Source: Rhodospirillaceae bacterium
Lineage (GTDB): Bacteria; Pseudomonadota; Alphaproteobacteria; GCA-2731375
Direction: 5' to 3'
Length of the DNA stretch: 64,000 nt
Assembly (NCBI GenBank): GCA_018701215.1
Contig: JABIWH010000012.1
Location: forward strand, 3,164-67,163
Shown here one piece after another: positions 20,062 to 36,380 of the stretch; within the stretch, counting starts at the first letter, position 1; each line of letters starts with the position of its first letter. Made by a program: the position numbers and the translations under genes. The notes under the pieces were generated by a model that worked only from the letters and a program-made list of their open reading frames with translations, had not been told where the DNA came from and made no database searches.

Positions 20062-20089
20062 GTTCGGGCATGGCGACAGTCGGGGTCTG

Positions 20090-20626
20090 ATGGTAGATCT
20101 CGATATCCCGCAAAATTCGGCGTCATCTGACTACAGGGGTGAGGTTCACAAATTGAATGATTATTGGATTGATATTGCAAGAATTCTGATACCGGGCGCA
20201 CTGATCGCGACTTTATCAGCGATTATCACAGTAAAACTCGCAATTCGTCGGTTTCACGAAGAAAAGTGGTGGGAAAAAAAGGAAGCCGCTTATACGAGTC
20301 TCTTTGAGGTAATGCACCGACTTAAGAATTACGCCGTACAACACTATGAGCAAGAACTCGATCCGGGGAGCTTCTCCAAAGAATATATGAAAGAACTTGA
20401 AGTCGAATGGCAAAAGGCAAGTCGTGAATATGCGAAGCTGCGCGATCTGGCTTCATTTCACCTCAGCGACGGCGCCCTCGCAGTTCTTGAAAAATTTGAC
20501 AATCAGAAGCAAAAAGCTCGAAATAAATTCGACCTATTTCTTTGGATCGAGGGAGACCTTGAGGCTGTGACTGAATGCCTCGAACAACTTAAGTTAGCCG
20601 CAAAAAAGGACCTCAAAGTGCGTTGA
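20090..20626 (+). CDS. hypothetical small membrane-anchored protein (low-GC island)
   Basis: 178 aa with one N-terminal TM helix (IARILIPGALIATLSAIITVKLAI), followed by a charged helical domain. GC is about 45% against ~65% background. A TTG start at 20153 with a GTGAGG RBS is an alternative. Confidence 0.55.
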   Translation: MVDLDIPQNSASSDYRGEVHKLNDYWIDIARILIPGALIATLSAIITVKLAIRRFHEEKWWEKKEAAYTSLFEVMHRLKNYAVQHYEQELDPGSFSKEYMKELEVEWQKASREYAKLRDLASFHLSDGALAVLEKFDNQKQKARNKFDLFLWIEGDLEAVTECLEQLKLAAKKDLKVR

Positions 20627-20801
20627 ATTCATTCTTTTGGGCTGCTGCTACATTTGTTGCCGCAATCCAGAATTCGCACTTCATTTGACGTCGCATTCCA
20701 GATTTCGGGCGATTGATTGCATTGCCCTATCCAGTTCGCGTATAGGGTGGCCTAGGTGCGCTTACATCCGGTGCCAATGCATCAAAGGACAGGTGGGTAC
20801 G

Positions 20802-21797
20802 ATGAAATTCAAGCAACGCACACTTATGCAAATCGCTGATATGATCTGCGGGAATCTTGAGGGAGAAAAAAATCTCTTTCGATATCGAAGCAGTAGTTAT
20901 CTGACGGAATTTTTCCAAGACTGCGATACCGATTATGAGCATGATGGTTCGACGCGCAAGTATTGGGTCGCAGACACACTTTTGAAAATTCTATCTGAAC
21001 CAAACCTCAACGCAAATACGCCTACAGAAACGTTCTCGCGTGTCATTCAGACTCTCATGGATCAAGGAGATGCCGAAAACGAGAATAAGGAGCGAGAGGG
21101 CGCATTGGTCCTGCTAAACACGGCACTCGCCCGCGAGGGCTTTGAAGCCTTTTACGCGCCCGATAAGCAATGCTACTTGCGCCACATTGCGACAAACACG
21201 ATTGTGAGGACCTCACCCAACCCCCATCGTCCTTTTTCAGAGGCGGAAATCATCCAGCGGGAGCTACTAATCGCTTATCTCAACGACGCCTCAGAAGATG
21301 AGTTGATTGAAGAGGTTTTATTGCCCCTCTTTCGCCACCTTGGTTTTCATCGCGTGACGTCTGCCGGGCACAAAGATAAGGCCCTGGAGTACGGCAAAGA
21401 TGTTTGGATGAGGTTTACTTTGCCTACGCAGCACGTTCTTTATTTTGGCATTCAAGCTAAGAAGGGGAAACTGGACGCATCTGGCACAAGCAAAGCGACA
21501 AACGTGAACGTTGCCGAAATCCATAATCAGGTAACGATGATGCTAGGGCATGAGATTTTCGACCCGGAGATCGGCAAGCGCGTCCTAGTTGATCATGCAT
21601 TCATTGTGGCGGGCGGAGAGATCACTAAAGCAGCGCGTAATTGGCTTGGAAATAAGTTGGATGCCACGAAGCGAAGCCAGATCATGTTCATGGACCGAAA
21701 CGACATTCTGGATTTATTTGTTGTCACAAATGTGCCCCTGCCCGATAGAGCCCAGCCGGATACAGCGCCAATCGACGCAGACACAATACCATTTTAA
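20802..21797 (+). CDS. Mrr-like restriction-endonuclease-fold (PD-(D/E)xK) domain protein with uncharacterised N-terminal domain
   Basis: The C-terminal ~150 aa match the Mrr catalytic-domain pattern (LFRHLGFHRVT...GKDVWM...YFGIQAKKGK...IVAGGEITKAARNW). The start at 20802 has an AGGTGGG RBS, and the track's N-terminal extension is rejected. The region is low-GC. Confidence 0.6.
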   Translation: MKFKQRTLMQIADMICGNLEGEKNLFRYRSSSYLTEFFQDCDTDYEHDGSTRKYWVADTLLKILSEPNLNANTPTETFSRVIQTLMDQGDAENENKEREGALVLLNTALAREGFEAFYAPDKQCYLRHIATNTIVRTSPNPHRPFSEAEIIQRELLIAYLNDASEDELIEEVLLPLFRHLGFHRVTSAGHKDKALEYGKDVWMRFTLPTQHVLYFGIQAKKGKLDASGTSKATNVNVAEIHNQVTMMLGHEIFDPEIGKRVLVDHAFIVAGGEITKAARNWLGNKLDATKRSQIMFMDRNDILDLFVVTNVPLPDRAQPDTAPIDADTIPF

Positions 21798-22099
21798 CAA
21801 TTGCAACAGGTCAATAGAAGAAAAGGAAGAAATTAGATCCTGTCTTGAATTTTGAGTTTTTGGGGCAAATTCCGGACAAATTTACGCCGCGCGGCATGGC
21901 AATATCGAGATAAAACACCAACTGCGAACAGGATGGTTCGGGGAACATGTCGCGGACCACATTATTCGGCAAAATTTAGCAATAATTTACCTCCCTCGGC
22001 CATTATATCGCCGTCACCGGGTCGGCTTGCGCTAATTGTTGATGGCCCTCCCGGCGCCAGTTATCCGCGTACGTTGCGCGGCGACGGAGGAAAGTGTGA

Positions 22100-34128: not shown

Positions 34129-34626
34129 ATGTTTCAAGTCAGCCTCGAAAAGCCCGCCGACGGTCCCGCGATTGAAAAACTGCTGGATCAATCATTCGGA
34201 TCCACCCGGCTTCAATTAACCGCCTATTGTCTGCGCAACGATACCTCGGCCCTGCCGGAATTGTGCTTCGTCATGCGCGGTGCCAGCTTTCTCTGCGCCT
34301 CGATCCGCTATTGGCCGGTATTGATCGAAGGCAAGCATAAATCCCTGCTGTTGGGTCCCCTTGCAGTAGGACAGGCATGGCGGGGCCAGGGCTTCGGCGG
34401 AATACTGCTCCGCCACAGCCTGGCGCGGGCCAAGGCCCTTGGCCATCAAGCGGTGCTGGTGATCGGCTCGCCGGAATATTACCAGCCGTTTGGCTTTTCA
34501 GCGGAGCTGACCCACGGTCTATCGCTGCCCAAAGCAGTGGACGATGGCCGTTTTCAAGCCTGTGAACTGGCCCCGGGTGCCCTGACCGGGGTTTCCGGCG
34601 CGGTCGCCTCGGCGCGAGACAGCTAG
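34129..34626 (+). CDS. GNAT family N-acetyltransferase
   Basis: Acetyl-CoA-binding motif [19 protein letters not shown] in a 165-aa protein. Confidence 0.8.
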
Positions 34627-35786
34627 ACGACCTTTCGGACTTCGGCCAGGAAATGATTCACGTCGTCACTCAAATTCGTCGATTGCTGGGATAGCGCGCC
34701 GGCGGCGTCCAGGATTTGTCCGGCGGCGCTGCCGGTTTCGCCGGCGCCTTCGGAGACTTTGTGAATATTTTCGGTCACCTCGCCGGTGCCGGCCGCCGCC
34801 TGATCAACGTTTCTGGCAATTTCCTGCGACGCCGTGCCTTGCTCGTCCACGGCGGCGGAAATGGTGCCGGCGACCTCGCTCATCTCGTCAATGGCCTCCG
34901 TGATACTCTGAATGGCGCGAACCGTATCGGAAGTCGCGGATTGTATACTTTCGATTTGGCCGCTGATTTCCTCGGTTGCCTTGGCCGTCTGGCTGGCCAG
35001 GTTCTTCACCTCGGATGCGACCACGGCAAAACCCTTGCCGGCCTCGCCGGCACGCGCTGCCTCGATCGTGGCGTTCAGGGCAAGTAGATTGGTTTGGCCC
35101 GCGATACCGGTAATCAGTTCGACCACGTCGCCAATTTTTTCCGAGGCTGAAGACAAGCCGTCAATTTGCGTCTGTGCATTCTTCGCTTCGATGACTGCAT
35201 TGCCGGCCATCTCGGAGGAGCGTGAGACCTGGCGGCTGATTTCACCAACCGAGGCGGTCAACTCTTCGGCCGCCGTGGCGACGGTCTGTACGTTGGTGGC
35301 AGCTTGTTCAGCCGCCGCCGCCACCGCCGTGGCCTGCTCGCTTGTTCGTTCGGCATTCGCATCCATGGACTTGGCCGATGCCTCGAGTTTCGTCGATGCG
35401 GATGCGACCTGATGGATGGAACCCTGCATGGCCTCGTCGAATTCGGTTATCACACCGGCAAAGGCTTTGGCCCGTTGTTCAATGGCCTCCGTTGCGGCAT
35501 TGATCGTCCGGCTGGCGGAGCCAAAGGCGCCGGGCATGCCCTTTTCCTGGATACGGCGGAAATATTTGTTGCCCGAGACATATTCCAAGGATGCCTCGGA
35601 TTCCCGAATATAGGCATCCGTCCGGTCAATCATCCGGTTGAGGGCAAGGAACACCTCCCTGAAGGCGGGGTGCTCGTCCAGCTCCGTAATACGGGCCTCG
35701 AAATCGCCTTCCGCCACGGCGTTGCAGACCACGAGGGCTTTCTTGATCGCGCCGGATTGAGTGCCGGTTATTCTATCTATGAACAT
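34623..35786 (-). CDS. methyl-accepting chemotaxis protein, soluble (no TM segments)
   Basis: The highly conserved MCP signalling domain is complete ([38 protein letters not shown]), and there is no hydrophobic segment. Confidence 0.85.
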
Positions 35787-35855
35787 TTAGTGTCCTTCTC
35801 CAATTCGCGGGCCAACCATGTCGCCCGCCAAGGCTTGTCGCTCTGGGATTTTTGT

Positions 35856-36380
35856 CTAAAGGGTCGCGATGAACTGATCATAAGCGACACCCTGGTCGCT
35901 CAGCAGTGTGCTGACCATATCGAAAGATGCCAGCATGCCGTCCTTCGCGTTCGGGTGCTTCTGCTCTTCCGCAAGCAACGATTGGTAGAGGGGGATAATA
36001 TGCTTGGTCAGGATGTCCCGGTTGGGCACCCTGCGATTGGAGTGATAGCCAATGGTATTGCCACTGCTATCTTTGCTGGGCGTGACATGTGCCAGGACCC
36101 AGTAATAGTCGCCGCCGTTAGAGCGGTTTATGACATAGGCGAAAATCTCACTGCCGCCTTGGATAGTATCCCACAGCAACTTGAAGACCGAGCGCGGCAT
36201 ATCAGGATGCCGGATTATACTGTGAGGTTGCCCCAGGACTTCTTTTTCCGAATACCCGGCTAAACGCAAAAAGACATCATTGGCATAGGTGATGCGACCC
36301 TTGAGGTCGGTCTTACTGACGATCAGTTCGTGATCCTCGAAAAACCGCTCAGCCCCGGTGATGTGATTGTCCCTGTTCAT
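35856..36380 (-). CDS. PAS domain protein, Aer-like (FAD-binding PAS)
   Basis: ITYANDVFLRLAGYSEKEVLGQPHSIIRHPDMP matches the Aer/NifL-type PAS domain. The start is set at the ATG at 36380 (GGGGAA RBS) rather than the track's TTG. Confidence 0.8.
   Translation of the reverse strand: MNRDNHITGAERFFEDHELIVSKTDLKGRITYANDVFLRLAGYSEKEVLGQPHSIIRHPDMPRSVFKLLWDTIQGGSEIFAYVINRSNGGDYYWVLAHVTPSKDSSGNTIGYHSNRRVPNRDILTKHIIPLYQSLLAEEQKHPNAKDGMLASFDMVSTLLSDQGVAYDQFIATL

Follow-up and report, generated by a model that had tools for sequence, protein, structure and literature searches.

A widespread family of predicted Mrr-type nucleases with an SSB-like C-terminal tip, represented in a low-GC islet of a Rhodospirillaceae bacterium

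Single-gene nuclease systems such as Shedu SduA, the END nucleases and the type IV enzymes join a sensor to a PD-(D/E)xK domain in a stand-alone gene, are located on prophages, plasmids or islands and are patchily distributed. EcoKMrr, of the Mrr_cat family (PF04471), is likewise solitary, has no accompanying methyltransferase and has a distinct N-terminal domain ahead of its C-terminal nuclease domain. Fast evolution is the norm among restriction enzymes. The C-terminal tip of SSB (the protein that binds single-stranded DNA), the SSB-Ct, is a hub that recruits more than a dozen bacterial genome-maintenance proteins. Here, we describe an islet of low guanine-plus-cytosine (GC) content within a 64,000-nt stretch of DNA (the window) from a Rhodospirillaceae metagenome-assembled genome (MAG). 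The islet carries two open reading frames, ORF1 and ORF2, both deposited as 'hypothetical protein' (MBT3780466.1 and MBT3780467.1), which a preliminary description had presented as a candidate anti-phage or abortive-infection module composed of a small membrane protein and an Mrr-like nuclease. We report the anatomy of ORF2, its distribution, its lack of a conserved partner, the constraint under which it evolves and its tip motif with host-linked variants. A predicted PD-(D/E)xK nuclease that is unusually strongly conserved and bears an SSB-Ct-like tip apparently matched to the host seems to be a new combination; the tip and the extreme conservation are the most unusual features of ORF2, and the preliminary description was silent on both.

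The E. coli SSB-Ct reads DDDIPF and the terminal P-F-COOH is the signature for the pockets of SSB partners (PMC5872125). S. aureus SsbA ends in DDDLPF, a tip reported as usual among the SSBs of Gram-positive bacteria, that of B. subtilis among them (PMC5531588), and the M. smegmatis SSB ends in GADDEPPF (PMC3575820); actinobacterial ends that were read directly are ...RMDDEPPF in Nocardia farcinica and ...YTEEPPF on a Streptomyces plasmid. The ORF2 family alignment ends in ...DDDLPF. A -PF end is present in 202 of the 212 unique full-length members, 199 of which fit [ILVMPCFA]PF, and the 202 divide into LPF (88), IPF (58), PPF (30), VPF (10), MPF (8) and other residues at position -3 (eight). 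D or E predominates at positions -4 to -6 (entropy 1.4-1.8 bits), and residues vary widely at positions -7 to -12 (3.3-3.7 bits). Members at 39-49% identity still carry the tip, and the tail is the second most conserved feature of the family. As in SSBs, the acidic [I/L/P]-P-F-COOH end follows a disordered linker, the last 11 residues of ORF2 (321-331) having a predicted local distance difference test (pLDDT) score below 50. Unlike in SSBs, the linker is short (about 15 residues) and the tip is borne by a nuclease instead of a DNA-coating protein: no SSB or OB Pfam match to ORF2 was obtained, and the predicted fold is helical with a nuclease domain.

The variants of the ORF2 tip occur in the same host groups as the corresponding SSB variants (DDDIPF in E. 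coli, DDDLPF in Firmicutes, DDEPPF in Actinobacteria). A PPF end is carried by 10 of the 12 complete actinobacterial members (PDEPPF, PEEPPF, PQEPPF, DSEPPF, WDDPPF and others), as against 1 of about 66 from other phyla, whereas all seven Bacteroidetes members end in LPF and those from E. coli and Klebsiella have DDIPF. In a neighbour-joining tree from which the tail was left out, most actinobacterial members form one clade; outside it PPF recurs in a Micromonospora (L088) and a Bryobacterales (L083) member, and two members from the Candidate Phyla Radiation (CPR) nested inside it carry IPF. No SSB gene was found in any of the loci retrieved. These patterns suggest that the ORF2 tip tracks the SSB tip of its host. 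Because it appears to change with the host SSB tip, the ORF2 tip most likely binds host proteins in trans and does not fold back on the nuclease, and the proteins bound would be partners of SSB that co-evolve with its tail.

The second striking property of the family is the constraint under which it evolves. Identity between phyla amounts to 63-82%, and pairs at 80-89% protein identity show approximately 0.07-0.12 non-synonymous substitutions per site (dN) with 0.9-3 synonymous ones (dS), which gives dN/dS ratios of 0.04-0.08 for pairs with estimable dS; for more distant pairs, dS was too saturated to compute. The GC content of the genes ranges from 0.37 to 0.63 and partly follows that of the host. 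Given the saturated dS and the variation of GC with the host, the high identity reflects long-term purifying selection, not recent spread. Such constraint is unusual for an accessory gene and even more so for a defence gene, and in this respect the family differs from the Mrr_cat enzymes, evolving far more slowly than restriction enzymes do.

The C-terminal half of ORF2 is predicted to be a divergent Mrr-type PD-(D/E)xK domain, an assignment supported by modelling and by motif comparison. The AlphaFold2 model (pLDDT 77) contains an alpha-beta-beta-beta-alpha-beta core similar to solved restriction and repair nucleases; its best Foldseek match in PDB was FokI (E 9e-3), followed by EcoT38I, AvaII and NucS, and in BFVD it matched viral 'Restriction endonuclease' and 'type IV Mrr domain' proteins with probabilities of up to 1.0. 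PDB sequence and profile searches yielded no relative. Residues E196, D200, Q218 and K220 show no variation among 39 sequences, and members with 39-49% identity retain them; in the model D200 precedes the strand 201-206 and Q218-A-K220 lies on the strand 212-220. The D...Q-x-K core is shared with EcoKMrr (QAKK in ORF2, QAKR in EcoKMrr), as are, in the same order, the downstream 'TTSGFT..A' and 'vlvDg..L' motifs. Altogether five motifs of ORF2 are colinear with EcoKMrr when read by eye, the automatic hhalign register differing mid-domain: LIEEVLLPLFRHLGF with FEVIVLDVLHRLGY, EYGKDVW with GDGGIDG, YFGIQAKKG with VYVQAKRW, VAGGEITKAAR with TTSGFTSQAR and MFMDRNDILDLF with VLVDGERLVHLM. The nuclease motifs quoted in the preliminary description (D...QAKK, IVAGGEITKAA and IMFMDRNDILDLF) are indeed invariant or nearly so across the family, and the conserved D200, Q218 and K220 lie on a predicted restriction-endonuclease fold; of the Mrr fold that it proposed for this region, a divergent PD-(D/E)xK domain with D, Q and K is supported. 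The Mrr_cat hidden Markov model (HMM) gave no match. ORF2 would be expected to act as a nuclease. Features absent from EcoKMrr are a beta-hairpin insert at residues 251-262 and the SSB-like tip.

The N-terminal domain of ORF2 had been said to resemble neither the Mrr winged helix nor any recognised domain, which agrees with the lack of a Pfam match over residues 1-145. Nor was any family or PDB sequence match found for it, and Foldseek returned only low-probability, winged-helix-like matches such as MukE; a function in sensing or in DNA recognition is presumed. A Cys/His metal site within it (C16, C41, C124, H128) was considered and rejected, as these residues are not kept in divergent members. 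In some distant relatives, represented by P0214 and P0302, the nuclease domain stands behind entirely different N-terminal regions; P0302 lacks the -PF tip and P0214 ends in ...DDPFA, and the N-terminal domain and the tip are therefore modular additions to a nuclease core.

ORF2 is a member of a large family without a name. A search of 5.8 billion proteins gave 3,891 matches, the best 120 of which are all 75-85% identical to ORF2 and come from very different phyla, and the length of 331 aa given in the preliminary description is matched by nearly all homologues. When one genome for each of 185,579 species was searched, 445 loci were obtained, corresponding to at least 445 species and more than 12 phyla. 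The analyses of neighbouring genes were based on 80 of these loci (65-82% identical), from Alpha-, Beta-, Gamma- and Deltaproteobacteria, Actinobacteria, Bacteroidetes, Acidobacteria, Chloroflexi, Verrucomicrobia, Planctomycetes, Cyanobacteria, CPR and Bipolaricaulota. Comparison of ORF2 with Pfam, NCBIfam, PADLOC and PHROGs gave no significant match. The comparison with PADLOC-DB v2.0.0, in line with the earlier view that the architecture belongs to no named defence system, matched ORF1 to no model and ORF2 to one only, a weak Stk2 match at its N-terminus (E 0.005), which was rejected as chance because only 1 of 39 family members shows it.

The family is carried on 47 of 72,556 plasmids, 25 of them conjugative, in E. 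coli, Klebsiella, Salmonella, Rhodococcus, Ensifer and Paracoccus, every listed plasmid copy being annotated 'hypothetical protein', and on 20 IMG/VR contigs. In E. coli, a homologue is present in 189 of 5,426 complete genomes (3.5%), where it forms part of a Qin-like cryptic prophage and is flanked by an integrase-like gene and by hokD, and on an IncI plasmid it follows vapBC and is located near DUF4238, S-4TM effector and abortive-infection (Abi) genes; the prophage allele is WP_023147794 and the plasmid allele WP_089576189. The same plasmid region additionally holds an ATP-binding protein, the S-4TM effector being of the pore-forming kind, and on two enterobacterial plasmids (L122 6218-6861 and L123 6205-6842) a vapBC pair lies approximately 140-160 bp upstream of the homologue. 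Many other copies are chromosomal and solitary, with no surrounding mobile element. The 148 immediate neighbours at the 80 loci include integrases (4), HTH_36 proteins (4), AbiEii (2), type I S subunits (2), Mrr_cat proteins (2), transposases and insertion-sequence elements, a TrwC relaxase and DnaE-type polymerases (2). As to the co-localisation with defence genes that had been proposed as a check, the relatives of both ORF1 and ORF2 often occur among mobile-element and defence genes, although such genes are a minority of the 148 immediate neighbours of ORF2 homologues.

Several loci of the family deserve mention on their own. DnaE-type DNA polymerase III alpha genes occur near the homologue at 3 of the 80 loci, adjacent in two and about 3 kb away in one (one of these loci is L001/L002 4397-7855, from Methylocella), and a Y-family polymerase gene (impB/mucB, IMS domain) flanks it at one further locus; these polymerase neighbours may reflect chance or a link to replication or mutagenesis cassettes. 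A Burkholderiales MAG (L012 7380-7973) and a Gemmatimonadaceae MAG (L023 7445-7984) have in common a small upstream gene of 179-197 aa (...NPL..VMGILEEIRKCQDAGATTA...) beside the homologue, together with approximately 240 bp of upstream DNA that is 82% identical, which points to a two-gene block exchanged between phyla. Kribbella jiaozuonensis carries two copies on two scaffolds (L075 and L076) with 300-bp flanks identical on both sides, and the gene therefore sits in a duplicated element.

None of these contexts supplies ORF2 with a regular partner. Clustering of the 1,067 neighbouring ORFs at the 80 loci revealed no conserved neighbour, and small upstream membrane proteins analogous to ORF1 were sought there and not found, the upstream genes being heterogeneous. 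No ORF1 relative was detected by tblastn within 8 kb of the 80 loci, all from other species, nor by comparison of the ORF1 profile with the 1,067 ORFs within 6 kb of them; conversely, none of the 13 scanned ORF1 loci from other organisms has an ORF2 relative. Because ORF1 relatives are absent from all 80 loci, the pair is not a co-conserved module and ORF2 is self-sufficient elsewhere, E. coli included. Conservation of the pair across genomes, which the preliminary description had named beforehand as decisive for a two-gene module, was accordingly not found; the pair has been seen only in the window's own Rhodospirillaceae lineage, where the pairing is at most facultative.

Even within that lineage the pair is not intact in every genome. 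Contigs from three JGI samples (L128-L130), which represent the same species or population and have flanks 99.95-100% identical to the window, carry a deletion that fuses ORF1 residues 1-45, transmembrane (TM) helix included, in frame to ORF2 residues 121-331, so that the cytoplasmic bundle of ORF1 and the N-terminal domain of ORF2 are missing. The fusion proteins are represented by P0157 and P0310, and near-identical ones from ENA and Logan assemblies fall into the same 90%-identity cluster. The cell tolerates a membrane-anchored nuclease domain, which argues against a constitutively toxic nuclease.

ORF1 has a history of its own. Of 15 informative contexts, 11 have a different gene on the same strand 60-180 bp downstream of the ORF1 relative: an HNH_2 nuclease (L007), a CAP12/Pycsar-type TIR protein (L091), a DUF6602/NucC-like nuclease with an AbiJ_NTD3 protein after it (L095), an NYN nuclease (L096), a Ser/Thr kinase resembling PD-T4-6/mad6 (L097), a methyltransferase-like protein with an HATPase_c_3 protein after it (L126), proteins of unknown family (L008, L098, L099 and L125) and, in the window, ORF2. 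At least eight unrelated genes are found as partners, and comparison of the partners with each other revealed no similarity; an N-terminal adaptor domain common to ORF2 and the other partners was considered and rejected, as none was detected. Some copies have no downstream partner or have an upstream neighbour (L092-L094, L100, L131 and L133), and integrase or transposase remnants or a group II intron adjoin some copies. At three loci the gene is part of a co-directional, defence-like run (L095 1694-2569, L126 1332-4911 and L133 751-1716), with the AbiJ_NTD3 protein, the methyltransferase-like and HATPase_c_3 proteins and a DUF2971 protein, respectively, and ORF1 may mark a type of defence island. 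The succession of a conserved ORF1 and unrelated effectors (HNH, TIR, NYN, NucC-like, kinase and the Mrr-like ORF2) resembles the effector swapping of CBASS, Pycsar and Thoeris. Unlike in those systems, no signal-producing enzyme or sensor stands beside ORF1, the partners have no common domain, some copies are solitary, and ORF1 matches no defence model. It may be the constant component of a modular system whose effectors can be exchanged, or else an independent small gene of defence islands.

The preliminary description was correct in treating the first reading frame as a real gene and not as non-coding sequence (its family comprises 37 clusters at 45-68% identity with 24 invariant columns), but the length of 178 aa, which corresponds to the longest reading, from ATG 20090 to 20626, is probably too great. 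All 26 homologues in the alignment begin at the position of L22 and a GGTGAGG ribosome-binding site precedes the TTG at 20153, for which reasons a protein of 157 aa is the more likely product. Its single N-terminal TM helix and helical C-terminal domain were borne out by hydropathy (residues I32-I52 in the 178-aa numbering, Kyte-Doolittle maximum as in the table) and by an AlphaFold2 model (pLDDT 89) that shows one long N-terminal helix and a four-helix bundle; in the family alignment, the helix is followed by an invariant basic/aromatic stretch, RRFHEEKWWEKK. The model resembled only generic four-helix bundles in PDB (E > 0.1), and neither Pfam, NCBIfam nor PADLOC models matched the sequence; its one match was to phrog_17948 (E 3.6e-14), of unknown function. 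A scan of viral contigs gave no relatives. ORF1 is a rare membrane-anchored four-helix-bundle protein encoded by a conserved gene.

The two genes share a compositionally foreign setting, as had been noted earlier. The GC content of the islet is 0.480, compared with a mean of 0.606 (sd 0.025) in 1,159 other windows of 2,038 bp, none of which is equally low (z = -5.1). The fall from 65% to 45% that had been quoted is real and its figures are roughly right, local values being 0.43-0.53 in the islet and 0.62-0.69 in the flanks. Codon usage shifts as well, GC at third codon positions being 0.44 in ORF1 and 0.54 in ORF2 as against 0.72-0.81 in the flanking molybdoenzyme and response-regulator genes. 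Gene identification confirmed these flanks: upstream lies a molybdopterin oxidoreductase gene followed by an Fer4/NrfD fusion gene, and downstream a Response_reg-Hpt (receiver-Hpt) gene. The second-lowest GC stretch of the window (about 34600-36300, GC approximately 0.51) looks ordinary and holds a minus-strand gene for a methyl-accepting chemotaxis protein (34623-35786).

The two co-directional genes of the islet are both real, each having conserved homologues. Searches of the islet for promoter-like sites and for plus-strand terminator-like sites, the spacer between the genes included, gave none, and the islet tail contains neither an Rfam match nor a plus-strand terminator-like site. The absence of an integrase, a tRNA and flanking repeats, which had been remarked upon, was confirmed: no integrase is found among the genes within approximately 6 kb on either side, neither a tRNA nor an Rfam RNA was found at the islet, and a repeat search gave no convincing flanking repeat. 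Shared flanking DNA, such as element ends or attC-like sites, was sought in about 100 loci and similarity was seen only between close relatives. A small horizontally acquired piece of DNA with two independent accessory genes is the best explanation of the islet.

Features of the low-GC islet and of the proteins that it encodes, in window coordinates
Feature	Coordinates	Strand	Evidence or remarks
Low-GC islet	20062..22099		Between the molybdoenzyme Fe-S/NrfD gene (end 20061) and the response-regulator/Hpt gene (start 22100)
ORF1 (probable extent), 157 aa, TTG start	20153..20626	+	Homologue starts, ribosome-binding site, 37 homologous clusters
ORF1 N-terminal transmembrane helix, ILIPGALIATLSAIITVKLAI	20183..20245	+	Hydropathy maximum 2.06 over 19 residues
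Segment absent in natural deletion allele, 935 bp	20226..21160	+	blastn breakpoints, ~6 nt microhomology
Spacer between ORF1 and ORF2, 175 bp	20627..20801	+	Contains the ribosome-binding site of ORF2, AAAGGACAGGTGGG
ORF2, 331 aa, member of a large unnamed stand-alone family	20802..21797	+	ATG 20802
ORF2 N-terminal domain, ~aa 1-145	20802..21236	+	Five helices and a small sheet (AlphaFold2)
Predicted divergent Mrr-type PD-(D/E)xK nuclease domain, ~aa 146-308	21237..21725	+	Foldseek, colinear motifs
Putative catalytic core D200 ... Q218-A219-K220	21399..21461 (D200 21399-21401; Q218-K220 21453-21461)	+	Compare EcoKMrr GIDG...VQAKR
Proline-rich, otherwise variable linker, NVPLPDRAQPDTAPID	21726..21776	+	Predicted disordered towards the end
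C-terminal tip ADTIPF-COOH	21777..21794	+	SSB-Ct-like; family consensus D-D-D-[L/I/P/V/M]-P-F
Non-coding low-GC islet tail, 302 bp	21798..22099		GC 0.49

On balance, we consider ORF2 most likely to be an Mrr-like accessory nuclease of mobile elements, encoded by a stand-alone gene and linked to the SSB interactome of the host through a tip that mimics SSB, with ORF1 as a neighbour that is separate or facultative. The protein would consist of the N-terminal domain, the Mrr-type PD-(D/E)xK domain (D200, Q218-x-K220), the short proline-rich disordered linker and the (D/E)3-[L/I/P/V/M]-P-F-COOH tip. The tip, which most likely acts in trans, would dock the nuclease into the SSB-tail pockets of host replication, recombination and repair proteins, which in E. 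coli include the Pol III chi subunit, PriA, RecQ, ExoI and RecO, and such docking would place the nuclease at replication or recombination intermediates or make it compete with SSB. Since prophages, conjugative plasmids and small islands serve as vehicles of the gene, which often has toxin-antitoxin, Abi and restriction genes around it, its role would most likely be defence against, or exclusion of, incoming replicons. A bolder version, which we offer only tentatively, is that the nuclease family copied the SSB tip, keeps it matched to the host and plugs into the SSB-partner network, which would be a new way to localise or gate an immune or exclusion nuclease where replication and recombination intermediates form or would allow it to detect invaders that tamper with the SSB interactome, and that ORF1 may be a new modular partner. 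As regards the earlier proposal of an anti-phage or abortive-infection system, the foreign islet, the nuclease domain and the membrane mini-protein have been retained and the conserved pair has not, a defence role being suggested by genomic context.

Several observations weigh against this picture. Pfam Mrr_cat does not match ORF2 even at E <= 1, and hhalign comparison of the family profile with EcoKMrr gave sub-threshold values (E 0.03-0.37); because Mrr_cat does not match, the Mrr fold draws entirely on the structure search and on the reading of motifs. The catalytic glutamate, at a position usually taken by D or E, is a glutamine in ORF2, as in Mrr, and activity is assumed. Defence genes do not typically evolve so slowly. 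No member was found among 50,697 phage genomes, and PADLOC does not contain the family, and most of the 148 immediate neighbours are ordinary, mobile-element and defence genes forming a minority, so the association with them is moderate and not strong. The split between PPF and IPF is largely that of one actinobacterial clade, with approximately three independent changes in a neighbour-joining tree, and the host tips used as reference are literature values and two actinobacterial SSBs from a plasmid collection, not from the same genomes; with few switches and with host SSB tips from other genomes, the co-variation is suggestive, not proven. A tip that acts on its own protein would likewise tell against docking in trans, and is weighed below with the other alternatives.

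The idea that the two genes belong together as a dedicated module for abortive infection or defence, in which the membrane-anchored ORF1 would sense or regulate and ORF2 would be the nuclease effector, has in its favour that the genes are adjacent and co-directional in a common low-GC islet and that ORF1 relatives precede varied effector-type genes in most informative contexts, which looks like a swappable-effector module. It is nevertheless rather unlikely, given that no ORF1 relative accompanies ORF2 at any of the 80 other loci, that the partners of ORF1 have no detectable similarity that could provide a common interface and that some of its copies lack a downstream partner or have their neighbour upstream. 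The spacer with a separate ribosome-binding site between the genes and the circulating deletion allele, which removes most of ORF1 together with the N-terminal domain of ORF2, speak against it as well. Another possibility, also improbable in our estimate, is that ORF2 is not immune in function but serves the mobile element or repair, its tip titrating or recruiting host SSB partners; it could support plasmid or prophage establishment, help to escape the recombination or defence systems of the host, or act on intermediates of replication and repair. Carriage on conjugative plasmids and prophages, the DnaE-type genes at three loci and the impB/mucB-type gene at one more, and the failure of known defence models to match are all consistent with such a role, and extreme conservation fits interaction with core machinery better than an arms race. 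On the other hand, the neighbours are often toxin-antitoxin, Abi and restriction genes, many solitary copies lie on chromosomes outside any mobile element, and the nuclease motif is conserved intact.

Two further alternatives concern the tail. It might act in cis, as an acidic, DNA-mimicking autoinhibitory segment like those of SSB, T7 gp2.5 and T4 gp32, or serve as a tag for a protease or adaptor. The tail is indeed acidic and disordered, with a flexible linker before it, the proteins that bind single-stranded DNA are known to fold their acidic tails back onto the surface with which they bind DNA, and mycobacterial ClpX reportedly interacts with SSB. We regard action in cis as quite improbable, however, for a purely cis-acting tail would have no need to track the host SSB tip (PPF in Actinobacteria, IPF or LPF elsewhere), and the invariant P-F-COOH is the signature read by the pockets of SSB partners (PMC5872125). 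Were the tail incidental, ORF2 would be a plain divergent type IV (modification-dependent) restriction enzyme of the Mrr kind, with which the Mrr-type D...QAK core and later Mrr motifs, the structural matches to Mrr-domain proteins and the solitary gene without a methyltransferase, as in type IV enzymes, all agree. This is very unlikely, since ORF2 shows no match to the Mrr_cat HMM and no Mrr_N winged helix, the tail is so conserved and co-varies with the host, and both the low dN/dS and the identity across phyla differ from what is seen in fast-evolving restriction enzymes. These plausibilities were rated separately and do not partition the possibilities; the last three alternatives concern single steps and overlap with the preferred model of a stand-alone nuclease docked by its tip.

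Among described single-gene systems, ORF2 differs from Shedu SduA and the END nucleases in having no PADLOC match and neither an iEndoIII nor a DUF4263 domain. END nucleases combine a FokI-like nuclease with an inactive EndoIII domain, and assignment of ORF2 to them was rejected on account of this different architecture (PMC12191111). No counterpart of the SSB-like tip and the extreme conservation was found among single-gene nuclease defence proteins in the literature searched, nor did that literature, which did not cover all journals, contain a description of the ORF2 family or of mimicry of the SSB tip by a nuclease or other non-SSB protein.

The family is common: it occurs in 445 species or more, 3.5% of complete E. 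coli genomes have it, and so do conjugative plasmids of Klebsiella and E. coli. Its sole annotation is 'hypothetical protein', and it is directly testable in E. coli by means of native alleles. The ORF1 family, with its varied effector neighbours, provides a second, smaller lead for the discovery of defence systems. If the tip is functional, ORF2 would show that an accessory nuclease can use the conserved replication and repair network for its targeting or control, which would also account for a rate of evolution in an accessory gene about as low as that of core housekeeping genes.

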